Source: a virus (Duplodnaviria > Heunggongvirae > Uroviricota > Caudoviricetes). From it: a DNA stretch of 39,344 nt. This document shows, piece by piece, positions 1 to 39,344 of the stretch (position 1 is its first letter; the number at the start of each line of letters is the position of its first letter). The translations under genes were made by a program, and so were the position numbers. Location: positions 1-39,344 of IMG/VR virus record IMGVR_UViG_645058835_000004. One strand, written 5' to 3'. The notes under the pieces are model-generated. The model ran no database searches, was not told where the DNA came from, and worked only from the letters and a program-made list of their open reading frames with translations.

Positions 1-258
1 ATGCAAACCGTTATTTTTGGTCGTTCGGGTTGCCCTTACTGTGTGCGTGCAAAAGATCTGGCTGAGAAATTGAGCAATGAACGCGATGATTTTCAGTATC
101 AGTATGTAGATATTCGTGCGGAAGGGATCACTAAAGAAGATCTACAACAAAAGGCAGGTAAACCCGTAGAAACCGTGCCGCAGATTTTTGTCGATCAGCA
201 ACATATCGGCGGCTATACCGATTTTGCTGCATGGGTGAAAGAAAATCTGGACGCCTGA
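1..258 (+). CDS. grxA: Glutaredoxin 1 (host gene)
   Basis: 85-aa ORF with the CPYC dithiol active-site motif (GCPYC) and the overall sequence of E. coli GrxA; GC-normal host DNA. Confidence 0.9.
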   Translation: MQTVIFGRSGCPYCVRAKDLAEKLSNERDDFQYQYVDIRAEGITKEDLQQKAGKPVETVPQIFVDQQHIGGYTDFAAWVKENLDA

Positions 259-287
259 TCGTCTGACAAGCCCTCGCGTTGAGGGCT

Positions 288-665
288 TTACTGATTTTTT
301 CTGTGCTGTGGTTTAAACAAACTACTGATAAATAAGAAACACAGTGCCCCCAGCGCACACCAGAACACCGCGCTTAGTAACCATGCCAGCTCTTGCCAGA
401 ATGAGCGCGTCGGTGAAAAAAACAGCCGCATAATGAGCATCGAACAGGGTGCCGCCAGCATTGCGCCAAACAGAGGTTTCAGGACTTCTCTACGCTGTGA
501 AAAGAAGCTGGCCACTGCTCCAGGAAGAATGAAAAATAGCAAGCCGATTTCAGGATGCCCGGCAGCCCGAAAAGCGCCTTTCATGTGCGTCGCCAGAAAA
601 AGGCACACCACAATGAAGAGGACAAAACAGCAGATTGCCCCCGCCCAACGTTGTTTATGTTTCAC
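288..665 (-). CDS. ybjM: Inner membrane protein YbjM (host gene)
   Basis: 125-aa hydrophobic ORF with several predicted TM segments; size and position (between grxA and ybjL) match E. coli ybjM. Confidence 0.7.
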   Translation of the reverse strand: MKHKQRWAGAICCFVLFIVVCLFLATHMKGAFRAAGHPEIGLLFFILPGAVASFFSQRREVLKPLFGAMLAAPCSMLIMRLFFSPTRSFWQELAWLLSAVFWCALGALCFLFISSLFKPQHRKNQ

Positions 666-934
666 TCGTTCCTCCTGACACTGCGTCTATCGAACACATT
701 TTTCGCCAGTGTGGCGTTCAGTAAGATAAAGCCGCTTCGCATTCCATGCTAATATAGGCCAACGCAATTCATATAGCCGTTGATACCTAATGTGATTACA
801 CTAGTAAAATATATTGTTACTTTACTATCGTTTAGGTGCGCTGAATGAATCTGCGCCCTGAATTCTGGTAAAAAACATTATCGTAAATTACCATTTCTTT
901 CAACAGCTTACTAGTAAACAAGAAGTTAGCCTCC

Positions 935-2620
935 GTGAATATAAACGTCGCCGAATTGTTAAATGGGAATTACATTCTGTTATTATTTGTGGTCCTCGCG
1001 CTTGGGCTATGTCTCGGAAAGTTACGACTTGGTTCGATCCAACTGGGTAATTCCATTGGCGTTTTAGTCGTATCGCTGTTATTAGGCCAACAACATTTCA
1101 GCATTAACACCGATGCGCTTAATCTTGGCTTTATGCTGTTTATTTTCTGCGTCGGGGTCGAAGCCGGACCGAACTTTTTTTCCATTTTTTTTCGCGATGG
1201 GAAAAATTACCTAATGTTAGCACTGGTGATGGTTGGCAGTGCGCTGGTGATCGCCTTAGGGTTAGGTAAGCTGTTTGGCTGGGATATTGGCCTGACGGCC
1301 GGTATGTTAGCAGGCTCTATGACGTCGACACCGGTTCTGGTCGGTGCTGGCGATACACTGCGTCATTCCGGCATGGAAAGCAGGCAGCTCTCACTGGCAC
1401 TGGATAATCTGAGCCTCGGGTATGCCTTAACCTATTTAATCGGTCTGGTGAGTTTGATTGTTGGTGCGCGTTACTTGCCGAAATTGCAGCATCAGGACTT
1501 ACAGACCAGCGCCCAGCAAATCGCCCGCGAACGTGGCCTGGACACTGATGCCAACCGTAAGGTTTATTTACCGGTGATCCGCGCCTATCGCGTCGGCCCG
1601 GAGCTGGTGGCCTGGACCGACGGCAAAAATCTGCGTGAACTGGGTATTTATCGACAAACCGGCTGCTACATTGAACGTATTCGACGTAACGGGATTCTGG
1701 CAAATCCAGACGGTGATGCCGTGCTACAAATGGGCGATGAAATAGCGTTGGTAGGCTATCCCGACGCCCATGCCCGACTCGATCCCAGCTTCCGTAACGG
1801 TAAAGAAGTTTTCGATCGTGACCTTCTCGACATGCGTATCGTCACTGAAGAAGTGGTCGTTAAAAACCATAACGCTGTAGGTAAACGTCTCGCACAACTG
1901 AAGTTGACCGATCACGGTTGCTTCCTTAACCGCGTCATTCGTAGCCAGATTGAGATGCCGATAGATGACAACGTCGTGCTTAACAAAGGTGACGTTTTAC
2001 AAGTCAGCGGTGATGCCCGTCGCGTAAAAACCATCGCCGATCGCATCGGCTTTATCTCGATTCACAGCCAGGTCACTGACCTGCTGGCATTTTGCGCCTT
2101 CTTTGTTATTGGGCTGATGATCGGGATGATCACCTTCCAGTTCAGCACATTCAGTTTCGGCATGGGGAACGCTGCCGGGTTGTTATTCGCCGGAATTATG
2201 CTGGGCTTTATGCGTGCTAACCACCCGACCTTCGGTTACATTCCGCAAGGTGCATTAAGCATGGTGAAAGAGTTCGGCTTGATGGTGTTTATGGCAGGCG
2301 TTGGTCTGAGCGCCGGTAGCGGTATTAATAACGGCCTGGGCGCGATTGGCGGTCAGATGTTGATTGCCGGATTAATTGTCAGTCTTGTGCCCGTGGTTAT
2401 CTGTTTCTTGTTCGGTGCTTATGTATTGCGAATGAACCGCGCACTGTTGTTCGGCGCAATGATGGGCGCACGCACCTGCGCGCCGGCAATGGAGATCATC
2501 AGTGATACAGCTCGCAGTAACATCCCTGCGCTGGGCTATGCGGGCACCTACGCAATCGCCAACGTCCTGCTGACGCTGGCAGGGACAATCATCGTCATGG
2601 TATGGCCAGGATTAGGATAA
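935..2620 (+). CDS. ybjL: Putative transporter YbjL (AAE-family membrane protein with central soluble regulatory domains)
   Basis: 561-aa ORF with N- and C-terminal hydrophobic halves flanking a soluble central region; size and synteny match E. coli ybjL. Confidence 0.85.
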
Positions 2621-2732
2621 AACTGAAGTTGCCCTGAAAATGAAATTTTTTTGCACAACCGCAGAACTTTTCCGCAGGGCATCAGTCTTAATTAGTGCCA
2701 CTGCTTTTCTTTGATGTCCCCATTTTGTGGAG

Positions 2733-2775
2733 CCCATCAACCCCGCCATTTCGGTTCAAGGTTGATGGGTTTTTT
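2733..2775 (+). terminator. Rho-independent terminator downstream of ybjL
   Basis: Perfect 10-bp stem CCCATCAACC / GGTTGATGGG (2733-2742 and 2760-2769) with a 17-nt loop, followed by TTTTTT (2770-2775). Confidence 0.5.
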
Positions 2776-2855
2776 GTTGCCTGAAATTTATGCCATTCAA
2801 AATCATGATGTTAGAAGCACTGTTTTTTAATGATGGCGACAAATTGGCGGCAGCG

Positions 2856-3074
2856 TCAAAGAGAGAGCGCCACCTGTCCTGATTTCATTGGATGCGGCTG
2901 AACCGGATTTGACTCTTTTGGCGTTGCAATCGAACGAACAAAAGTTTCATGGGTAACAAAAGTATGGCTGCAGTTAATGTTCTGGCACTGGTTGTAACGC
3001 TCTTTGGTCAATGAAGATACCTGAAAACTGCTGCGAGTATGGGCGGCACTTCCACACAGTGGGCAAATCATCAT
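2856..3074 (-). CDS. ogr: Late-gene transcriptional activator, Ogr/B zinc-finger family
   Basis: 72 aa from the internal ATG (MMICPLCGSAAHTR...QCQNINCSHTF): CxxC...CxxC zinc finger and length match P2 Ogr / 186 B; located at the D-proximal prophage end as in P2. Confidence 0.8.
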   Translation of the reverse strand: MMICPLCGSAAHTRSSFQVSSLTKERYNQCQNINCSHTFVTHETFVRSIATPKESNPVQPHPMKSGQVALSL

Positions 3075-3164
3075 TTTTCGAGTTCTCCCCATTTTTGCTA
3101 AATTCACAATAATGATACCGCATTATTCCATTTTGAAAACTTAAAAGTTCTCCATTGCGAAGAA

Positions 3165-4265
3165 TCATTCCATTTCGAAATCATCAATCTTCACTTCAAG
3201 CTCCAGACTGGTCGTAAAACCGTTATCCGGGCTGACAGTATGCGTCAGGGTGGTAATAGTCCATTCCGCATCATCTATCGGCTGTTTAAAACCACTGACC
3301 TTCACAGGCATTTCCGTGTAGAGATCTGCCCGCCCTTCCGCCAGTTGTAGCGAGAATGACGCAACGCCGCGTTGCAGGCGTTCCCACTGCATTTTTGCCG
3401 CTCGTTCGGCGTTGCTCCGGTTGGCATAAGTGCGATTAAGTACCAGCACGTTTTCATCCGTCCCCACCAGGTAATCGCCCTGCTTCGCTTCCGGCTCTTT
3501 CTTCTGCTTCTTAGTCCTGCGCTTACGCTTCACCGTAGTGCTTTCTTTCTTCGCGGGTTCGCGGGTATGCAACCAGCTGGCAATTACCCCCGTGTAAGCT
3601 CCGCGATCTGCCAGGGTAAAGCGGTGACTGTCGCCGTCCTTACGTATGATAGTGATCACCGGCAGTGGTTTACCGCTGGCGCTTTTACCCTGTCCCTGCC
3701 GGATGAATAACAGATTGCCATTTTTCACCGATGCAATGGCACCGTACTGGCGCGCCAGCCGCATCAAAAAACTGCCGTCACTCTCATTAGTCTGGTCTAT
3801 ATGCTCCACGGGTTTATCCGACAGGTCTTTACCCAGTGCCATCTTCAGTTTGTGACGCGCAGCTATTTCCTTCACCACTTCCCCGACCGTGGTCTTGTGC
3901 CACGATTTTTCACGACGGGTATTCAGCGTTTCCCGAAAATCAGCGCTTCGCGCCCGGATAGTCAGGCGGTCCGGTGCGCCAGTGTGTTCAATCTCGTCCA
4001 CCGTGAATGCCCCTTTCGGGAAAAGCGGCTGCCCCTTCCAGCCCAGCGCCAGCGTAATGACCGCACCACGGCGCGGCAGCACGATTTTTCCGTCGGCGTC
4101 GTCCAGCTCCAGATCAAGCTGGTCCGCTTCAAAGCCCCGGTTATCCGTCAGCGTAAGCCCCATCAGGCGGTTGTCCAGCACAGTGGTGATATCCCTGCCC
4201 TCAATACTGATGCTGAATGCTGGAGTTTTGTTGCCTTTGTTAAGCAGTTCAGAGCTGAAATTCAC
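3165..4265 (-). CDS. Tail protein gpD (late control gene D family)
   Basis: 366-aa ORF, GTG start overlapping the U stop (GTGA); position after U as in P2; sequence read as gpD-like. Confidence 0.85.
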   Translation of the reverse strand: MNFSSELLNKGNKTPAFSISIEGRDITTVLDNRLMGLTLTDNRGFEADQLDLELDDADGKIVLPRRGAVITLALGWKGQPLFPKGAFTVDEIEHTGAPDRLTIRARSADFRETLNTRREKSWHKTTVGEVVKEIAARHKLKMALGKDLSDKPVEHIDQTNESDGSFLMRLARQYGAIASVKNGNLLFIRQGQGKSASGKPLPVITIIRKDGDSHRFTLADRGAYTGVIASWLHTREPAKKESTTVKRKRRTKKQKKEPEAKQGDYLVGTDENVLVLNRTYANRSNAERAAKMQWERLQRGVASFSLQLAEGRADLYTEMPVKVSGFKQPIDDAEWTITTLTHTVSPDNGFTTSLELEVKIDDFEME

Positions 4266-12993: not shown

Positions 12994-13894
12994 CCGTTCC
13001 CCCGTTGGTCATGCTCCACTGCGTACATGATGCCGCCTGCGTTTTGTTCAGGACCACATCCGCCAGCGGGGAAGCCAGTTCCACACGCTGAACACCCTCA
13101 ACATGCAGCGCGGCAAAAATGGCGCTACGGCGAATATCCCGACCCAGCCGCGTCTGACTGGCGATGTACCTCTGCAGGCTGGCTTTTGCCGCTGCCATTA
13201 CCGGCTCTGCTTCCGGCCCCGGATAGAGAAAAATGGTGGCTTCCACGCGGTACGGGATGATTTCCGCGCTGCGAACCGTCAGACGGTCAGCCACCGGGCG
13301 GACGTTCTCACTGTTCAGGGCTTTCTCCACCACATCCAGCAGGTCTTTTTCTGCTGTTCCGTCGCCTTCACGGCTTAGGACCGTAAGCACCACCTCTGCA
13401 GGTGCCGGACTGGTTGCACTGGCATCCGCCACCCGACCGTCGGCGCTTCGTGCATGAAACTCATAAGCGGCAGTTGGCCCAGCAACAGAAAGCCCTTCAA
13501 AGGCTGCAGGCACACGCAGGCGTAACGCTTCATCACTTTCCATCACAGCCGCAACGGGCGGTACAGCGTCATCATCAGCAGGTGTCACCGTCAGGCGTTT
13601 CACGTTGTAGTTAGCAGCGAGCTGGTCAAGATCGCCGCCCATCGCGTAAGCCACCATCACAGCCTGCGCGGCTTCGTTAATGCGCTGGCGCAGAAGCAAC
13701 TCACGGTAAGCGTTCTCCTGCAGCAATTTGGTGACGGGTTCAGATTCCAGTTCCAGCGTATGCATCACTGCTTCCTGCTCATCTTTCGGATGAAGCGCCA
13801 CAAATTCTGCCTTGCGTTCGGCAAGCAGCGTCTCAAAGTCCGGCACATCCACAATCTGCGGCGCAGGTAACTGCGAAAGGTCAATCACTGCCAT
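12986..13894 (-). CDS. Baseplate protein gpJ
   Basis: 302 aa from the internal ATG (MAVIDLSQLPAPQ...), matching P2 gpJ length; the longer ORF extends to 13933. Confidence 0.85.
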   Translation of the reverse strand: MAVIDLSQLPAPQIVDVPDFETLLAERKAEFVALHPKDEQEAVMHTLELESEPVTKLLQENAYRELLLRQRINEAAQAVMVAYAMGGDLDQLAANYNVKRLTVTPADDDAVPPVAAVMESDEALRLRVPAAFEGLSVAGPTAAYEFHARSADGRVADASATSPAPAEVVLTVLSREGDGTAEKDLLDVVEKALNSENVRPVADRLTVRSAEIIPYRVEATIFLYPGPEAEPVMAAAKASLQRYIASQTRLGRDIRRSAIFAALHVEGVQRVELASPLADVVLNKTQAASCTQWSMTNGGTDE

Positions 13895-14240
13895 TCTCTG
13901 CTCCTGTTGATACGGAAAGGGAAACAGGCACACCGTTATTCCGCCGCCCGGTCAGCTCCACCACCATTGAACCGTCAAAATTGCTGTTGATGGTGATGGA
14001 ATCCAGCGTCAGCCGTGGCTCCCAGCGACTCAGCGCCACATACACTGCCGACATGACCTGCAGACGTAATGCCGGATTTTGTGGCTGGTCTACCAGTGCC
14101 GACAGCAGGGAACCATATTCACGACGGGCAATACGGCTACCCTGCGGTGTCAGCAGAATGTCCCGCACCGACTGGCGCAGATGGTCAATATCAGTAATGG
14201 CTTTACCGCTGGTATTGTTCATCCCGCTATAAAGCGTCAT
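13881..14240 (-). CDS. Baseplate wedge protein gpW
   Basis: 119-aa ORF between V and J. Confidence 0.8.
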   Translation of the reverse strand: MTLYSGMNNTSGKAITDIDHLRQSVRDILLTPQGSRIARREYGSLLSALVDQPQNPALRLQVMSAVYVALSRWEPRLTLDSITINSNFDGSMVVELTGRRNNGVPVSLSVSTGAENGSD

Positions 14241-14815
14241 ACCGGGCCTCCGGTTGTGTCGCCGCCTTTCAGGACGCCAGTATGCTGATGTGCATCAACC
14301 ACAATTCCGTTAGAACTCATTGCACCGCCGCCCTGGGTAACGCCACCATTGATCACCACTTCGCTGTTAATACGCGAGCGGTCAGCCTCCAGCACAAACT
14401 CACTGGTTTTCAGGGTAATGTTGTTGGCAGCCTCAATGACCATGGATTTGATGCCCCTGACATACCAGCGCCCGGTAGCGGGTTCATATTCAAACCAGCC
14501 ACCGTCAGGATGTTCTGTCACACAGGCGTCCACCGACGCCGACGGTGGTGCGAACTGATTCGAATAGACAGCGGGCAGCGCAAAGGCGGTTTCCAGATTA
14601 CCGCCCAGACTCAGCAGCACCACCTGCTCACCTTCTGATGGTTTCCACCATGTGCGGGCATTGCCCGCGCGCAGTGTCAGCCAGTTAATCCAGTTGGTTT
14701 CAAGGTCGCCTGTTTTCACCCGGCAAAGCCAGTTCTCCCGGTCCACTTCGGTGACTACCCCAGTGCGGATCAGGTTGGTGATAAGGCGCATGATTTCGGT
14801 TAATTGTGCGTTCAT
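14237..14815 (-). CDS. Baseplate spike/hub protein gpV
   Basis: 192-aa ORF, N-terminus MNAQLTEIMRLITNLIRTGVV... resembles P2 gpV; first gene of the V-W-J-I-H-G operon. Confidence 0.85.
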   Translation of the reverse strand: MNAQLTEIMRLITNLIRTGVVTEVDRENWLCRVKTGDLETNWINWLTLRAGNARTWWKPSEGEQVVLLSLGGNLETAFALPAVYSNQFAPPSASVDACVTEHPDGGWFEYEPATGRWYVRGIKSMVIEAANNITLKTSEFVLEADRSRINSEVVINGGVTQGGGAMSSNGIVVDAHQHTGVLKGGDTTGGPV

Positions 14816-14861
14816 AATTTAATCATGCTGATTTAAGATTGATAAAAAAACTCTTTAGTTT

Positions 14862-14879
14862 TGTGCCAGTTATGATACA
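14862..14879. promoter_or_regulatory. TGT-N12-ACA dyad in the V / cargo divergent intergenic region (possible late promoter element; geometry ambiguous)
   Basis: TGTgccagttatgatACA; centre is ~55 bp from the V ATG, which does not leave a normal leader for either flanking gene. Confidence 0.25.
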
Positions 14880-14915
14880 AAGTGCATTTACTCATGGACT
14901 AAATAAAGGATTCCT

Positions 14916-16175
14916 ATGTTTAGATTATCTAGTGTCAAGATTGAAGGTTTTTGGGGAAGACTAAATGCATCATGTTCATTTAATGAAGATGTAAATATTA
15001 TTATTGGTCGAAATGGGACCGGTAAAACAACCTTTATGAATATTCTTCACTCAGTTCTGGCATTAGAACTTGAATCGTTAAATGAGAATAGTTTTGATAA
15101 TGTAACAATAAAAATAAAAGAAGGAAGCAAAACTAAAACAATAAAAGTTGTGAGTAAATTTGACATAACTAAGGCTTTGCCTACGTTTGAATATACAATT
15201 TCTAGAAAGAAATATATTATCAGATCCTTTGAAGATCGTAGGCTGCCTATATATATGAGGAGAAAATATCAGGAAGACGTTGAAAAACTTAAGTTAGAGC
15301 TAGATAAATTAGTTGCTTTATCTTCTCTATCAGTTTACCGACTTAGAAGCGGTGAAGATTTTGAAATCAGAGACAAATATGGCTCAAAATTAATCAACCC
15401 CGTTGATTACCGATTAGAACAATTATTGCAGAATCTAACAAAATATCAGCTTTACTTATCACAAAGAGCTCGTGATGTTTCTGCAAAATTACAGAAAGAG
15501 GTTCTTGCTTCTATTCTTTATAGTAAAGAAGATGGTATCGATGACACATTTAACTTTTCTTTTGATAAAGAAAAAGAACGTAGAAATTTAATAGCTGCAT
15601 ATTCTCAACTTGGAGCTTTTGATAGTGATGTCAGAAAGAAGATTAACTTTCACGTTGAATCTATTGCCAATACATTTGAAGAACTACGACTTGCAGAAAA
15701 AAACAACAGAAATATTTTAAATGTAGATTACAGATCATTTGAGGCATTACGAAAGACGCAAAGAATTATAAAGATGTCTTTAAAATCCGAGGAGGAAATA
15801 AAAAACATATTTCTTCCTATAAATCTATTTTTAGAAACATTACATGAGTTCATAACCGATAAAAAATTTAATTTTATCTCCGGTGAGCTAGTAATAGAAA
15901 ACGAGCATGGGCCGATTAGCCATAGTAATTTATCGTCTGGAGAAAAACAGCTATTAATTCTTTTTATTGAAACTTTGCTACAGCAAAACAAACCTTTCAT
16001 CTATCTTACTGATGAACCAGAATTATCACTACATATTGCATGGCAACGAAAAATAATACCTGCAATCAAACAACTTAACCCTAACGCACAAATTATCGCC
16101 GCTACGCATTCACCAGAAGTGGCCTCTAAATATCGAAATGCAATCTTTGATATGGAGAAATTGGTTCATGGATGA
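14916..16175 (+). CDS. ABC-type (SMC/RecF-like) ATPase, PARIS AriA-like candidate
   Basis: 419-aa AT-rich ORF: Walker A GRNGTGKTT (aa 31-39), signature-like LSSGEKQ, Walker B FIYLTDEPE, H-loop ATHSPE; opposite strand to the flanking tail genes. Confidence 0.6.
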   Translation: MFRLSSVKIEGFWGRLNASCSFNEDVNIIIGRNGTGKTTFMNILHSVLALELESLNENSFDNVTIKIKEGSKTKTIKVVSKFDITKALPTFEYTISRKKYIIRSFEDRRLPIYMRRKYQEDVEKLKLELDKLVALSSLSVYRLRSGEDFEIRDKYGSKLINPVDYRLEQLLQNLTKYQLYLSQRARDVSAKLQKEVLASILYSKEDGIDDTFNFSFDKEKERRNLIAAYSQLGAFDSDVRKKINFHVESIANTFEELRLAEKNNRNILNVDYRSFEALRKTQRIIKMSLKSEEEIKNIFLPINLFLETLHEFITDKKFNFISGELVIENEHGPISHSNLSSGEKQLLILFIETLLQQNKPFIYLTDEPELSLHIAWQRKIIPAIKQLNPNAQIIAATHSPEVASKYRNAIFDMEKLVHG

Positions 16176-17019
16176 TTTCCATTATTCTGCCGAAGCAGAA
16201 AATGTAATGAATTTATTTTACCAAGCTGAAGCCATGGTTTATGTTGAAGGCCCAGATGATATTTGCTTTTGGGAAATCATCTTTAATAAAGCTAGTTCAT
16301 TAAAGGTTGAAATCAAAGATGTTGGCGGCTGTGAAGAATTAAAAAAATATATTGATAGAGTTACTGATGAAGATCTTCAAATTATTATTGCATGTGATGC
16401 AGACTTCACTACATTTGAAAATGAAGAAAACGCTGATAGTCGTATTGTAAAAACTTATGGGCACTCCATCGAAAACACATTTATTGACAAAACAGGCATA
16501 TATAAGGCAATAAAAACTCTCGGGAAATTACCGCAAAAGATAATGAACGATGTCAACATCGATTCTTGGACAGAAGACTTTTATACCAAAATGGAACCCC
16601 TAATAAAACTTGATATATACAATCATATTTATAGAAAAGGCATTTCAGTTATTGGTGACAGTGCAGATCGTTTCATGAAATCTAGAAAATCAAATGAAAT
16701 TTGCGAGCAAAAAATCACGGATTACAAAAACACCATTATTGAAAAATTAGGTGTGGAACCAGATAACATCGATTCATCTTTCAAATCAAAATCGATAGAA
16801 TACAGAAAGTGGCTTAGAGGTCATTTTCTTTTTTCTGCAGTACATAGGTACATTAGCACAACTGCAGAAAAAAATGGAAAAAAAGTATCCTTATCATATG
16901 AATCACTATATTCCAATTTAATGAATACATTTGAATCTAATTTTACCAATACTCATATTGAGTTTAATCATTACCACGAAAAAATCAAAGCCATAAATAT
17001 GCCACACGAAATGAAATAA
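16138..17019 (+). CDS. Toprim/DUF4435-like nuclease partner, PARIS AriB-like candidate
   Basis: 293-aa ORF (alternative ATG at 16168 overlaps the upstream stop as ATGGATGA); N-terminal YVEGPDD glutamate motif and a later IIIACDADF (DxD) motif consistent with an OLD-type Toprim; AT-rich. Confidence 0.55.
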   Translation: MQSLIWRNWFMDDFHYSAEAENVMNLFYQAEAMVYVEGPDDICFWEIIFNKASSLKVEIKDVGGCEELKKYIDRVTDEDLQIIIACDADFTTFENEENADSRIVKTYGHSIENTFIDKTGIYKAIKTLGKLPQKIMNDVNIDSWTEDFYTKMEPLIKLDIYNHIYRKGISVIGDSADRFMKSRKSNEICEQKITDYKNTIIEKLGVEPDNIDSSFKSKSIEYRKWLRGHFLFSAVHRYISTTAEKNGKKVSLSYESLYSNLMNTFESNFTNTHIEFNHYHEKIKAINMPHEMK

Positions 17020-17044
17020 GAAAAAATACAGATGTATTTTTATA

Positions 17045-17491
17045 TTATTTAGATAACCATTCAAATAGGGTATCCTTGATTTGATAATATTCTTTATCGT
17101 GGATACCCAATAGCTTACGCTCTGCGTAACGGACCTCCGGTCCTTTGCGGCTGACGCGATCACGTAAGCCGTAGTGATGAACACGGGCAATGCGCTGTAC
17201 CTTGCCTTCAAACTGCACGCTGGCAGAATCGGCGCTGGCGGCAGTTTTCAGGTATTTTGTGGTGCGCAGCTTTGCAAACATCTGACGTTTGATACGGCCT
17301 TTTTTACTGCGCGCTGTGACCTTGCGCGGTTCATAACTGCTGCCATCAGGGTTGCGCTGCATCCTGATATTCTGCTGCTGTGTCCGGCGTAGTTCCTGCG
17401 CCAGCTGGCGCATCATGCGGCTTCTTGCGGCTGGCTCCAGATTCGCCAATAATGCACTCAGCCAGTCGTCCACCTTCTGCAATTCAGCCAC
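17045..17491 (-). CDS. Tail completion protein gpS
   Basis: 148-aa ORF downstream of R; P2 S-like. Confidence 0.85.
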   Translation of the reverse strand: MAELQKVDDWLSALLANLEPAARSRMMRQLAQELRRTQQQNIRMQRNPDGSSYEPRKVTARSKKGRIKRQMFAKLRTTKYLKTAASADSASVQFEGKVQRIARVHHYGLRDRVSRKGPEVRYAERKLLGIHDKEYYQIKDTLFEWLSK

Positions 17492-17915
17492 GTTTCACCG
17501 TCCACATTTCTTCAGGTTCATCGGGCTCTGCTACAGCTTCAACGCTCGACACACTGCCGTCAGTGCTGACCAGCACACGCTCCGTCAGTTGCAGGTTAAG
17601 GCTGATATCACAGACATCGTTGCGCAGAATATCCACCTCAAAGGTGAATAACTTTTCCCGTAACGCCGGATTATTGATGGCATCGGGCTGGTTATCCCGC
17701 AGCCACAGCAAAACCGGGGCCATCAGCAGATTCTGGTCGCCGCTGAAATCCTCAATCACCACGTTCAGGGTGTAACGGTACTCCCATGACATGGAGCTGG
17801 CCCCCGTGGCAACCAGCGAACCGTTATCCACAAACAGATGCAGTTTGTCCGGGTTATTGCGGACATAAGGCACCGCTTTATTGAGGGCGTGGCGCAGGGA
17901 CTGTGGTTTGTTCAC
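17484..17915 (-). CDS. Tail completion protein gpR
   Basis: ORF to 17936 begins with TTG; the in-frame GTG at 17915 gives an N-terminus (VNKPQSLRHAL...) aligning with P2 gpR (MLKPDSLRRAL...). Confidence 0.8.
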   Translation of the reverse strand: MNKPQSLRHALNKAVPYVRNNPDKLHLFVDNGSLVATGASSMSWEYRYTLNVVIEDFSGDQNLLMAPVLLWLRDNQPDAINNPALREKLFTFEVDILRNDVCDISLNLQLTERVLVSTDGSVSSVEAVAEPDEPEEMWTVKRG

Positions 17916-18168
17916 TGTTTCGCTCCTGACACGCAATAATCATGTCCACTTTGTCTGCACAGACTGCCCAGGCGGCCTCCGTTTCATCCAGCAACGCGTT
18001 CAGATCACCGTTAGTGCGCGGCGCTGCCTGATCCAGCCGACACGGCGTCACTCGCGGACAACCACTGACGGTAAGCTGCACCTCCGGTGAGTGTCGGACG
18101 TTCCCGCAGCCGGATAATGTCAGCAGGCAAAGGAGTATCAGCCCAGCGGTGTAAATCCTCGTTCTCAC
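17878..18168 (-). CDS. Outer-membrane spanin lipoprotein LysC/Rz1-like (overlapping the lysB 3' end)
   Basis: 96-aa ORF in another frame overlapping lysB; signal peptide with lipobox LLTLSGC. Confidence 0.7.
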   Translation of the reverse strand: MRTRIYTAGLILLCLLTLSGCGNVRHSPEVQLTVSGCPRVTPCRLDQAAPRTNGDLNALLDETEAAWAVCADKVDMIIACQERNSEQTTVPAPRPQ

Positions 18169-18439
18169 GTTTCAGTTCCTCGATCCGGTGTTGTCGTTGT
18201 CTCAGCAGCGCGCTGGTCTGTTCTGCTTCGGCATAGAGCCGCGCCTGCTCCCGGTTATTGGTTTCAGCCAGAATGGACAGACTGATCAGCTGGCTATTTT
18301 TCTTCGTTAGTTCGTGCGCTTTACTTTTCAGCGCCGCGCGCTGCGTTTCGATGGTGTGGCTGGCGCTGTTAAGCCGCCACGACTGCCAGCCCAGCGCAAC
18401 GAGTGCCAGCGCCGCCACTACCGCCAGCGCACGCGTCAT
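18011..18439 (-). CDS. Inner-membrane spanin LysB/Rz-like
   Basis: 142-aa ORF with N-terminal TM segment then coiled-coil-like charged region; follows the endolysin. Confidence 0.75.
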   Translation of the reverse strand: MTRALAVVAALALVALGWQSWRLNSASHTIETQRAALKSKAHELTKKNSQLISLSILAETNNREQARLYAEAEQTSALLRQRQHRIEELKRENEDLHRWADTPLPADIIRLRERPTLTGGAAYRQWLSASDAVSAGSGSAAH

Positions 18440-18951
18440 AGTCCAGCTCCTTTAAGGCACCAGGCCATCTCCCGCGCACGGCGGTTATCCAGCCCCTGAT
18501 TAAACACACCTTTCACATAAACCCAGCGCGGCAACTGTCGGCACGCATCCGCCCAGCGCCGCTGGTTGAGCAATTTCACCAGCGTGGAACTGCAGGCATT
18601 GCCAGTCCCCACGTTGAAGGCAAACGACACCGTAGCGTCATACACCTTCTGTGGTGGCTGTTGCTTCACACACCTTTCCAGTGACCGCTCCACACGCAGC
18701 ACGTTGGAGATAAGCCCTTCTGCTGCCTGTCGTTCCGTAATGGTTTTGCCGGGAATGACGCCCGACGTATTACCAATGCCGTCAGTCCAGACACCCGCGC
18801 TGCACTGATACGGCTGCAGACGACAGCCTTCGTAATCGGCAATCAGTTTCAGTCCCTCCACGGAGGTGTGAAGCTGCTGAAAACCCGGCAGCATGGCAGC
18901 AATAGCCAGCACGGTCCCGACAAGACAGCGTTTAACGATTGATGGATTCAT
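18436..18951 (-). CDS. Endolysin (phage lysozyme, gpK-like) with N-terminal signal-anchor
   Basis: 171-aa ORF; hydrophobic N-terminus then lysozyme-like core (EGxxLxxYxxxxGxWTDGIGxT). Confidence 0.85.
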   Translation of the reverse strand: MNPSIVKRCLVGTVLAIAAMLPGFQQLHTSVEGLKLIADYEGCRLQPYQCSAGVWTDGIGNTSGVIPGKTITERQAAEGLISNVLRVERSLERCVKQQPPQKVYDATVSFAFNVGTGNACSSTLVKLLNQRRWADACRQLPRWVYVKGVFNQGLDNRRAREMAWCLKGAGL

Positions 18952-19147
18952 AATCCTCCCGCGAGATCTGCCCGTCGCGCAGAAGCTGGTAGGCTTTGTG
19001 TTTGTAGTACCAGTTGATAGCCAGCATCAGCACACCAATCATCAGACCGCCCAGCGTTGAGGCATCCTTGATGGACAAATCGCCCAGCCAGGCCAGCACG
19101 ACGGCGATGCAATACGTGATAAAGGCGCTGATTCGCTCAAGCGTCAT
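18932..19147 (-). CDS. Holin
   Basis: 71-aa ORF with two hydrophobic segments and charged C-terminus, immediately upstream of the endolysin. Confidence 0.75.
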   Translation of the reverse strand: MTLERISAFITYCIAVVLAWLGDLSIKDASTLGGLMIGVLMLAINWYYKHKAYQLLRDGQISREDYESINR

Positions 19148-25463: not shown

Positions 25464-26009
25464 TTAAAATCTACGCCTAAATCCTAGTTTCTCACCCGGT
25501 GTCATTGCCCTACCGACCGCTCCTTCTAATAAATGAGTGTTGTTCTGTAAATGCTCGCGAGCCCACGGCTGCAAATTGAAAGCGAATCCGTCAATCATAC
25601 TGCCCACGTTTGCAGCTCTATAGGTTATGCGCTTAGCAACCAACCCCCCCATAACACCATCTTCAGGACCACACATTAGTGAGTTTTCGCCATCAATTAT
25701 ATAAGACCAGAGGTATCCCTTCTCCTCAGGAGTTAGCTTCTCCAAATAAGAGATACGTACTTTGTGCCTTTGTCTATCGCCATATAGGTCATGAAAAAAC
25801 TGATATACTCTTGCAACTAAAAAAGAGACAGCCAGTAAAAATGCTGGTCCTATGAAATTTCTATATTCTTTACGGAAACCATCAACCGCAACTTTAGAAG
25901 CTAAAGATTCTGGCAAAAAAAGGATCAAACTTAAACCACATGTAATAGCTACAAGAAGTGCCGTTGGAATCTTTCTAAAAAAATCCAATAATCCAGTAAT
26001 AGCATCCAT
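25464..26009 (-). CDS. Small membrane protein, moron between Q and cos (possible superinfection-exclusion-type protein)
   Basis: 181-aa ORF with two N-terminal hydrophobic segments and a soluble C-terminal domain; lower GC than the flanking backbone. Confidence 0.5.
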   Translation of the reverse strand: MDAITGLLDFFRKIPTALLVAITCGLSLILFLPESLASKVAVDGFRKEYRNFIGPAFLLAVSFLVARVYQFFHDLYGDRQRHKVRISYLEKLTPEEKGYLWSYIIDGENSLMCGPEDGVMGGLVAKRITYRAANVGSMIDGFAFNLQPWAREHLQNNTHLLEGAVGRAMTPGEKLGFRRRF

Positions 26010-26095: not shown

Positions 26096-26114
26096 CTCGT
26101 ATCCCCGCCACGCC
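26096..26114 (-). other. Candidate cos site (cohesive-end region)
   Basis: Minus-strand GGCGTGGCGGGGATACGAG resembles the P2 cohesive end GGCGAGGCGGGGAAAGCAC as I recall it (14 of 19 identical); lies distal to Q; direct repeat CGTATCCCC 23 bp away. Confidence 0.45.
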
Positions 26115-26432: not shown

Positions 26433-28010
26433 CTACAATACTTTTCTCTCGATGGTATTTTTAATGGTCAACATATCTTTAGGAATACTTTTTTTCCCCT
26501 CTATACGTATGGTAAACACAAAAAGAATAACTGCTGATCTCACAATTTTCATGAGTTGTAAGAGCTGTTTCTCAAACTTTTCTTTCTCAATAAATCTCAC
26601 CTCATCAAAAAATCCATAAGAATTATATAAATCAACTAACATGTCTTTCTCGTGAATAACTAACAGTTTATGTTCTAAATCATTCCTCCATTCTTTAAAA
26701 AAAGCAAGCTCACCATTTTTATCATTCAAATCCATAGCAATACTAAACAAACCCAGCAATCCTTTATTATTTATTTTGTTTATTTTAAGCTTTCTTTTTT
26801 CATCACTAATCCGCCAGAAGTTATGAAAGTATATATGTCCTCTATCTGGTTTTAAATCAAATAATTGACACAGAGCAACTGCTATTTTATCCAAGATACC
26901 AAAGCAAGCTCTAAATGCAACCCTTAACTTCTCAACATTTTCATACAATATTTCTCCATTATACAATTCAGAATAACATACCTCCGAATCCTCATCAAAA
27001 AACTCACTATCAACCTTATATTCAAAAAACATTTTTCGTGCTAAGGAATACTCAGCTTTAAGTCTATTTAACACCATTTCCATTGGCACTATAAAATCAC
27101 CAAACACACCTTCCTCGGTGGTAGCAATAGTTATATTATCTTTAGATGACGCATAACAATTGCAATATAGCGAATGATCAGACAACATTAGATTATTATC
27201 TATACAAAACCTCTGGTAGTTTGATAAAGTATCATACTCCTCCTGCGTGAGCCTTTCATCTGTACTTATATCCTCTATGCCATATACACATGATTCACTC
27301 AATATACTTTCGTTGTACTTTATTTTTCTTTGAAGAGCAACCTTCCATGAAGGAAAACATTTCCCTGACTTTATTGCACACTCATAACCTCGAATAACTT
27401 CTTTAATCATTTTATATGTATATGTTGTAGATAATTCATTAAGCAATTCTAATGCCTCAGATCTGTTTACCCACGCCTGAGGAATTGAGTTATCAATAGA
27501 TATTGCTTGTTCATAATAATCCATTGATTCAGATATACGATATTGTTTTTTTAATACATTAGCTAGATTAACTATTAAATCAGGGGGCACCCATCCATCT
27601 TCTTGTGAAAGTTTAAACGCTTTCCAGTAATTATTTTTTACATCATTCAGCTTAATGAAACTATCAATATCTGCATTGTCATTAGGATTAAAATCAAGAA
27701 CTGCGCTCATTCCATTTGCCAAGTTATAGTAATATAAGGATTCTTTCATTATAGTCAGAAATTCATTTTTATTGTTTATAAAGATATTTAAGCCTTCCTC
27801 CGCTATATTTTTTACATTACTAAAACTTCCGATATCAATAAGATTTCCGGCCAAATTAGATAATATAATTATTCTATTTTCTTTGATTGTATTTATCTCA
27901 TCGATACCGTTAAGAATATCCTTTACATTTTTATAGGCAGAATCAAATGAACCTGCATTAATAAGATCATCTACGAACCCCATTTTTGAAACAACATAGT
28001 TGATATCCAT
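26433..28010 (-). CDS. Cargo protein with TPR-like repeats and C-terminal HEPN-like RNxxxH motif (candidate abortive-infection/defence RNase)
   Basis: 525-aa strongly AT-rich ORF at the P2 old/tin-equivalent position; TPR-like helical segments; motif WRNDLEH (R442-H447, approx. 26670-26687). Confidence 0.5.
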   Translation of the reverse strand: MDINYVVSKMGFVDDLINAGSFDSAYKNVKDILNGIDEINTIKENRIIILSNLAGNLIDIGSFSNVKNIAEEGLNIFINNKNEFLTIMKESLYYYNLANGMSAVLDFNPNDNADIDSFIKLNDVKNNYWKAFKLSQEDGWVPPDLIVNLANVLKKQYRISESMDYYEQAISIDNSIPQAWVNRSEALELLNELSTTYTYKMIKEVIRGYECAIKSGKCFPSWKVALQRKIKYNESILSESCVYGIEDISTDERLTQEEYDTLSNYQRFCIDNNLMLSDHSLYCNCYASSKDNITIATTEEGVFGDFIVPMEMVLNRLKAEYSLARKMFFEYKVDSEFFDEDSEVCYSELYNGEILYENVEKLRVAFRACFGILDKIAVALCQLFDLKPDRGHIYFHNFWRISDEKRKLKINKINNKGLLGLFSIAMDLNDKNGELAFFKEWRNDLEHKLLVIHEKDMLVDLYNSYGFFDEVRFIEKEKFEKQLLQLMKIVRSAVILFVFTIRIEGKKSIPKDMLTIKNTIERKVL

Positions 28011-38312: not shown

Positions 38313-39344
38313 ATGGCAGTACGAAAACTCACCACAGGAAAATGGCTTTGCGAATGTTACCCCGCCGGACGTAGTGGACGTCGTGTGCGTAAACAATTCT
38401 CCACCAAAGGCGAAGCTCTGGCTTTTGAGCGTCACACGATGGAAGAAACCGAAGCAAAGCCCTGGCTGGGTGAATCAATGGATCGTCGAACACTGAAAGA
38501 CGTGGTTGAGCTATGGTTCAAACTACATGGTAAATCACTGACTGCTGGGCAGCATGTCTATGACAAATTGCTGTTGATGGTTGACGCTCTGGGCAATCCC
38601 CTTGCAACTGATCTCACCTCTAAAATGTTTGCCCACTATCGAGATAAACGCCTGACAGGTGAGATCTACTTCAGCGAGAAATGGAAGAAAGGAGCAAGCC
38701 CGGTCACTATTAACCTGGAGCAAAGCTATCTAAGTAGTGTCTTTAGCGAACTATCCCGCCTGGGCGAATGGTCGTATCCGAACCCACTGGAGAACATGCG
38801 AAAATTCACCATCGCAGAAAAAGAGATGGCATGGCTTACCCATGAGCAGATTGTTGAATTGCTGGCTGATTGCAAATGTCAGAACCCAATTCTGGCACTG
38901 GTAGTTAAGATATGCTTAAGCACAGGCGCACGCTGGCGTGAAGCCGTAAATCTTACCCGCTCACAGGTGACCAAATACCGAATTACCTTTGTAAGAACGA
39001 AGGGGAAGAAAAACAGAAGCATCCCTATCAGTAAAGAGCTTTACGAAGAGATCATGGCGCTTGATGGGTTCAATTTCTTCACAGACTGCTATTTTCAATT
39101 TTTATCCGTGATGGAAAAAACGTCTATCGTGCTCCCTCGCGGTCAACTGACACACGTTCTGCGCCATACGTTTGCGGCGCATTTCATGATGTCGGGTGGA
39201 AATATCCTTGCTTTGCAAAAAATCCTCGGACATCACGACATAAAAATGACCATGCGTTACGCACATCTGGCACCGGATCACCTGGAAACTGCATTACGGT
39301 TTAATCCGCTGGCAACACTACCAACATCAACAGCAACTGTTTGA
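38313..39344 (+). CDS. int: Tyrosine integrase (P2 Int family)
   Basis: 343-aa ORF with C-terminal catalytic region (RxxxxxxxF...LRHTFA...HxxxxMTMRYAHL); last gene before the expected attL, ends at the window edge. Confidence 0.9.
   Translation: MAVRKLTTGKWLCECYPAGRSGRRVRKQFSTKGEALAFERHTMEETEAKPWLGESMDRRTLKDVVELWFKLHGKSLTAGQHVYDKLLLMVDALGNPLATDLTSKMFAHYRDKRLTGEIYFSEKWKKGASPVTINLEQSYLSSVFSELSRLGEWSYPNPLENMRKFTIAEKEMAWLTHEQIVELLADCKCQNPILALVVKICLSTGARWREAVNLTRSQVTKYRITFVRTKGKKNRSIPISKELYEEIMALDGFNFFTDCYFQFLSVMEKTSIVLPRGQLTHVLRHTFAAHFMMSGGNILALQKILGHHDIKMTMRYAHLAPDHLETALRFNPLATLPTSTATV

Follow-up and report, generated by a model that had tools for sequence, protein, structure and literature searches.

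A P2/186-like prophage very probably inserted at the 3' end of the small RNA gene rybB, downstream of ybjL

The window, by which we mean the whole stretch of 39,344 nucleotides that was analysed (positions 1 to 39,344 of IMG/VR virus record IMGVR_UViG_645058835_000004), starts with the host genes grxA, ybjM and ybjL and continues in a P2/186-like prophage to its end (Table 1). The segment from 2621 to 2855 is exactly the gap between the last host coding sequence, ybjL, and the first phage coding sequence, an ogr-type gene with its stop codon at 2856-2858. An earlier note on this DNA, made from the sequence alone, had put the host/phage junction (attR) in this gap and had the phage side begin with the ogr-type gene, 235 bases after the end of ybjL, and both placements stand. 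In an ungapped comparison K-12 has only 12 mismatches to window 1-2778; the homology runs through rybB and breaks at 2779, with mismatches at 2779, 2780, 2783 and 2787, and from 2792 on the similarity is gone. The record of Klebsiella phage 4LV2017 labels the corresponding ogr-side junction 'attR'.

Table 1. Features of the window, with coordinates, strand and the basis of each assignment
Feature	Coordinates	Strand	Basis or remark
grxA	1-258	+	first gene in the window
ybjM	288-665	-	
ybjL	935-2620	+	last host coding sequence before the prophage
Sigma-E-type promoter of rybB (predicted)	2663-2691	+	consensus reading and K-12 identity
Predicted rybB promoter elements	-35 (A)GAACTT 2663-2669; 16-nt spacer; -10 TCTTA 2686-2690; start G 2697	+	
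rybB sRNA gene, complete, 79 nt	2697-2775 (K-12 coordinates)	+	79/79 identical to K-12 b4417
14-bp att segment ATGGGTTTTTTGTT	2765-2778	.	identical in attB, attP, attL and attR (alignments)
Full 27-bp att core at attR ATGGGTTTTTTGTTGCCTGAAATTTAT	2765-2791	.	direct repeat in some host lineages
P2/186-like prophage body, as far as the window reaches	2779-39344	.	gene order and ORF lengths as in relatives
Phage P' arm of attR, with candidate arm-type Int site pair TGGCGAC-N4-TGGCGGC at 2834-2851	2792-2855	.	
ogr/B-type zinc-finger late-gene activator, last phage gene before attR	2856-3074	-	PHROG 603, E 1.5e-28
cos-like cohesive-end site GGCGTGGCGGGGATACGAG	26096-26114	-	BLAST with the phage 186 end-to-end junction
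apl/cox-type excisionase and repressor	34763-34984	-	PHROG 575 'Cox-like excisionase and repressor', E 1e-31
186-type CI immunity repressor	35073-36029	+	Pfam PF07022 (two stretches), PF16452
Tyrosine integrase	38313-39344	+	Pfam Int_N PF24624, Phage_integrase PF00589; stop codon ends the window

Of all Rfam families the only one with a match in the gap is RybB (RF00110), on the plus strand at 2700-2778, with 105.3 bits against a gathering score of 40 (E 8e-21), and the match is full length, covering model positions 1-79 of 79. The gene rybB is well known in envelope stress, and its product is an Hfq-dependent small RNA. Its position is conserved, as it follows ybjL directly and on the same strand, just as it does in K-12, where it lies between ybjL and rcdA in the order rcdA(+), rybB(-), ybjL(-). 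The gene rcdA is the same as ybjK, which the earlier note had rightly expected on the far side in K-12, and in relatives rcdA is found beyond the prophage, on its far side. The 76 nt from the ybjL stop to rybB do not differ from K-12, and in them GAACTT-N16-TCTTA stops 6 nt short of the start; this motif we take to be the known sigma-E promoter of rybB, a gene for which sigma-E dependence is published.

With regard to termination, the RybB fold obtained with RNAfold has a 12-bp terminator stem followed by U6, with z = -3.3. A simple terminator scan over 2500-3200 found none, as it missed the RybB hairpin because of its long branched loop of 17 nt. The earlier statement that host synteny ends at a terminator is right in so far as there is a hairpin, but the hairpin is RybB's own and not that of ybjL. 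By ARAGORN the whole window is free of tRNA and tmRNA genes, in agreement with the earlier observation that there is no tRNA at the site.

In RefSeq/PGAP annotation of lysogens no ncRNA is given between ogr and ybjL although rybB is present (loci L002, 42684-42918, and L004, 36430-36665), and rybB is marked only in the curated K-12 record, as against the automatic annotation of the lysogens. It is thus an easy misreading to make, and we suggest that the interval be annotated as rybB plus attR and not as empty intergenic DNA.

The att core was examined in an alignment of the K-12 attB, the attR of the window, the attL of A37 and CE0021a, the attP of phage KP12, and the attR of 4LV2017 beside the Klebsiella rybB. 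All of the aligned sites share ATGGGTTTTTTGTT. Its 14 bases run from the final 5 nt of the terminator's 3' arm in RybB through the U6 tract to the GTT behind it, and they take in the last 11 nt of the gene as annotated in K-12 and then 3 nt beyond it. There is one copy in the window, as against 0.01 expected by chance. The 13 further positions are partly shared, being GCCTGAAATTTAT in the window attR and the A37 attL, GTCTGAAATTTAT in the KP12 attP and ATCTAAAACTTAT in K-12. Compared with the 27-bp core, the KP12 attP matches at 26/27, the empty site of isolate AHB1 also at 26/27 and already with GCCTGAAATTTAT, and the K-12 attB at 14/14 and then 9/13 (23/27 in all).

The empty attB sites are polymorphic, with the phage-type sequence in AHB1 and GCCTATAATTTAT in EC31. 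In the empty sites of both isolates the first core base is G and not A, by which an A-U pair of the RybB terminator becomes G-U.

The earlier note took the site to be intergenic, downstream of ybjL; on such a reading it would be a plain att site and any RNA gene nearby only incidental. The lack of a tRNA or tmRNA in the window is in keeping with this, as is the empty lysogen annotation between ogr and ybjL, and the last 3 of the 14 identical bases do lie past the annotated RybB end. However the core overlaps the terminator arm and U-tract of rybB, the same phage family is at rybB in Klebsiella, where the flanks differ, and rybB is named as the target in the literature (PMC3032704, PMC10121019, PMC4048246). 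In the case of Klebsiella the evidence is in the 4LV2017 record, in which a full Klebsiella rybB (103 bits) adjoins the 'attR' feature, so the same phage family uses rybB in that host; the sequence in the record is a prophage cut-out with the host gene still attached. We consider an intergenic site most improbable. The earlier note had itself allowed that another known att target in the interval would tell against its reading, and a complete rybB (RF00110), with its last 11 nt in the att core and a published record as a P2-like target, is what lies there, so the intergenic reading falls on the note's own terms.

Joining the attL phage arm, the core and the attR phage arm gives a predicted attP of 266 nt. 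This is found as one continuous stretch in Klebsiella phage KP12, 97% identical over 266 nt, between the integrase and OGR. The 18-bp paired motif noted in the attR arm is found again in A37, CE0021a and KP12, in the arm on the int side, and flanks the core on both sides in the KP12 attP; AACTTATTGTTTT is in tandem on the int-side arm. The pair TGGCGAC-N4-TGGCGGC shares a CGCCA core with the arm consensus YAYCGCCAYTY of 186 Int (annotated in NC_001317), and by analogy Int would be expected to bind the TGGCGRC arm pairs. A full-length alignment of the window Int with phage 186 Int gives 54% identity and brings the catalytic ARW-R, H-x-x-R and RY motifs into register (TGARWRE, HVLRHTF, MRYAH).

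The window ends at the int stop codon and attL is outside it, and the far side has to be read from related genomes. Over its last 1.5 kb the window is 100% identical to A37, where ATGGGTTTTTTGTTGCCTGAAATTTAT is found again 451 bp after the int stop, with the rcdA 3' end directly behind it. A look-up with the exact integrase gave 10 public contigs, all identical to the last 3,532 nt of the window, and in each of the 10 the int gene is followed by an 89-aa ORF, by the core at a distance of 451 bp from the int stop, and then by rcdA-ybjJ-ybjI. There is a perfect 27-bp repeat at attL in 7 of these contigs (host flank CCCAGCAATCC) and also in A37, whereas in the other 3 the right 13 attL bases are of K-12 type, ATCTAAAA(C/T)TTAT, with host flank CCCTGCAACCC. 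In 10/10 contigs the right part of the attL core agrees with the haplotype of the host flank. One contig with the 27-bp repeat, DADKQU010000002.1 (GCA_017159675.1), is also 100% identical to window 13416-17675, around the PARIS genes discussed below, and is probably the source of the window or nearly a twin of it; by our arithmetic the spacing between its two readable stretches differs by 6 bp from that in the window. Such a repeat would be expected at the attL of this prophage too, to judge from the contigs identical over the last 3.5 kb of the window. The earlier note had held that a core not repeated at attL would count against it; the core is beside rcdA in every related genome examined. 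No second or partial rybB was found above threshold in the attL locus (A37) or the attP locus (KP12).

Past the point where the window ends, A37 has between the int stop and attL (locus L003, 4546-4995) an extra 89-aa ORF and a leftover integrase 3' end, GTGGCGACAAAGTGGCGGCAGCGGTTGGCATTACCCCGTAATAA, which is the real int end in CE0021a and KP12. It seems from the sequences that the present int gained a new 3' end and that the old one was retained, probably because it holds arm-type sites. The phage-side arm plus core can also be read as a terminator of the phage's own, with a 9-bp hairpin and a U-run in A37 and KP12 (z about -2 and -1.5) that is absent in CE0021a, and this is a weak indication of such a terminator at attL.

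The AHB1-type empty site already carries GCCTGAAATTTAT, so the right half of the core comes from the host in attL and from the phage in attR, which places the crossover within the left 14 bp. Exact cut positions may be put forward by analogy with phage 186.

Taking these comparisons together, it is very probable that a complete P2/186-like temperate phage of about 37 kb was inserted into the 3' end of rybB by site-specific recombination with its tyrosine integrase, and that rybB was rebuilt in the process. The attP would lie between int and ogr with a 27-bp core, of which the first 14 bp, ATGGGTTTTTTGTT, would copy the rybB end, and strand exchange would occur within the 14-bp identity. At attR the phage copy would then rebuild rybB base for base, with the promoter, seed region, terminator stem and U-tract intact, and a copy of the core only (attL) would be left beside rcdA, outside the window. 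As the phage carries a copy of the rybB end the insertion would be harmless to the gene, and RybB expression would be expected to be unchanged. Were the exchange to occur in the final 3 bases of the 14-bp identity, it would fall just past the K-12-mapped RybB 3' end. Excision would presumably need the apl/cox-type protein. Phages insert into tRNA and tmRNA genes by the same logic, with the gene end carried by the phage, and the rybB prophage is a textbook-style case of a phage copy of a host RNA gene end allowing insertion without damage, which opens no new question.

It could be argued that integration alters rybB function, by weaker termination or by read-through antisense to ogr, with a regulatory effect on host or phage. 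The two genes are indeed convergent and only 80 bp apart, and after the GTT 4 of the next 13 bases differ from K-12, beyond which all of the sequence differs. However the RybB hairpin, the U6 and the three following bases are unchanged at attR in comparison with K-12, and some empty sites (AHB1) carry the same 13 downstream bases, so that this context is not specific to lysogens. We see an altered rybB as very unlikely. We would give marginally less credit still to two further ideas, that sigma-E transcription of rybB toward attR and ogr might modulate the excision complex or late-gene activation through read-through or antisense effects, or that the attB alleles (K-12 with 23/27, AHB1 with 26/27) might set lineage-specific lysogenisation rates; the unchanged RybB terminator speaks against modulation of excision or of late genes by sigma-E.

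With regard to the phage that was inserted, the gene order is D-U-T-E-FII-FI-G-H-I-J-W-V ... S-R-lysis-X-L-M-N-O / P-Q / cos / tum-A-dam ... cII-apl / cI ... int, and this P2-type set in canonical order with cos bears out the earlier identification of a prophage downstream of ybjL and places it in the P2 family. There are PHROG or Pfam matches for D, U, T, FI, H, N, P, Q, A, ogr, lysozyme, holin and GpU, and cII, fil, a DinI/Tum-like gene, dam and replication gene A are also present. Identical neighbours of the ogr-type gene are annotated 'ogr/Delta-like zinc finger family protein'. The 186 end junction matches the window with 79% identity over 63 bp, and the first 13 nt are those of the 186 cos (BLAST); a search of the window with a P2 cos sequence, allowing up to 3 mismatches, gave no match.

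The CI repressor is of 299-318 aa, with two Phage_CI_repr HTH stretches and a C-terminal domain, as compared with the 186 cI gene of 579 nt, for about 192 aa. The sequence suggests a CI with a duplicated DNA-binding domain.

If attL is 451 bp past the end of the window, the prophage unit is about 37.0 kb. This is large for the family because of cargo insertions; the A37 prophage is about 1.2 kb shorter and has other cargo, so that A37 is a relative and not the source of the window. The earlier note had described the element as apparently intact, and by sequence this still seems right: the structural, lysis, replication and regulatory ORFs have the lengths of those in annotated relatives or match profiles end to end, and with cos, full-length structural genes, int, apl and cI the prophage looks complete. 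One may still ask if it is cryptic, that is fixed, no longer mobile and intact in appearance only, given that about 37 kb exceeds P2 or 186 (30.6 kb for 186) with several cargo insertions, and given that the attL of this genome falls outside the window. Yet the full-length ORFs and the presence of cos, int, apl, cI and the DinI/Tum-like gene argue against decay, the closest contigs have two perfect att cores, and related deposited phage records have lengths of 35.6-38.9 kb, so that we think a cryptic prophage unlikely and prefer a complete phage.

Among complete RefSeq E. coli genomes none covers more than 78% of window 14400-39344. Records filed under Klebsiella phages (OM835953, OK4904xx and NC_047818) match about 80% of window 2779-27000 at about 95% identity.

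The site is in common use. The ybjL-rybB-ogr-D junction is present in 1115 of 5426 complete E. coli genomes (20.5%) and the empty rybB-rcdA junction in 4227 of the 5426 (78%), while the integrase region was matched in 1133 genomes. With about 1 in 5 complete genomes occupied, rybB ranks with the P2-family sites of heaviest use in E. coli.

It is also already known as an insertion site for P2-like phages or Felsduovirus, and the feature is in this sense an ordinary one. Archer et al. 2011 (PMC3032704) list P2-like prophages inserted at the 'rybB ncRNA' in three E. coli strains, Rybb*W in W, Rybb*B in B and Rybb*Cr in Crooks, the one in E. coli B carrying retron Ec86, and their Table 2 has the cyaR (ryeE) and ssrA (tmRNA) sites side by side with rybB. 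Hotspot #29 of Hochhauser et al. 2023 (PMC10121019) has only Felsduovirus prophages, integrated within rybB, in 109 genomes, and Hudson et al. 2014 (PMC4048246) describe a Klebsiella island, Kpn38RybB, that is precisely inside the RybB gene. In two other papers, PMC3632133 and PMC3333887, rybB and prophages come up but this site does not.

The published rybB prophages (those of W, B and Crooks, hotspot #29 and Kpn38RybB) are like the present one in target, in phage family, in position between ybjL and rcdA and in carrying defence cargo. They differ only in the cargo mosaic, which includes retron Ec86 in E. coli B and a retron St85-family gene in A37, whereas the cargo of the prophage in the window is PARIS, SieB, TPR-HEPN and PDC-M11.

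Coliphage 186 has the same order of ogr/B, attP, (small ORF), int, cI and apl, and the 54% identical Int discussed above. As in the window, its attP core copies the 3' end of a host RNA gene, tRNA-Ile ileY (NC_001317), so that the gene is rebuilt, and there are paired arm-type sites with a CGCCA core, those in the window being candidate sites. The difference is that 186 targets a tRNA gene and the prophage studied here the gene for an Hfq-dependent sRNA, and that the identity with the host is annotated as 36 bp for 186 as compared with 14-27 bp here. P2 and P2-like prophages at cyaR (ryeE), including the K-12 ogr-D' remnant, and elements at ssrA also have the end of a small-RNA gene as attB, and differ from the rybB prophages in locus and core sequence.

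The lysis cassette at 18011-19147 (-) has holin, lysozyme and LysB/LysC genes and does not have the 378-nt LysA-like gene ('DNZ54_00345 family') of A37 and CE0021a; in this it resembles phage 186. In the early operon, at 31328-33243 (-), there is a PAPS-reductase-like gene with SspD/BrxP/DndC-like matches beside the Dam methylase gene. Phage 186 has a homologue of the reductase, and in 186 it is a non-essential gene.

The anti-phage defence cargo is the more interesting content of the window. A PARIS-type two-gene defence module at 14916-17019 (+) lies between the baseplate gene V and the tail gene S, on the opposite strand to them, and comprises an AriA-like AAA_21/AAA_15 ATPase (419 aa) and an AriB-like DUF4435 protein. 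The position is empty in A37 and CE0021a, and at least 8 other contigs have the same insertion. A SieB-like superinfection-exclusion gene is at 25464-26009 (-), between the portal gene and cos, and on the other side of cos, at 26433-28010 (-), is a gene for a 525-aa protein with TPR and HEPN_LA2681, in the 'old/tin' cargo position of P2. Finally there are three genes between cI and int, in the lysogeny operon at 36030-38234 (+), for a 260-aa protein with weak DUF3644/HEC-08 similarity, PDC-M11A (E 2e-130) and the ASCH-domain protein PDC-M11B (E 5e-48), PDC-M11 being a candidate defence system. At this position CE0021a has just one gene, which bears the annotation AAA family ATPase.
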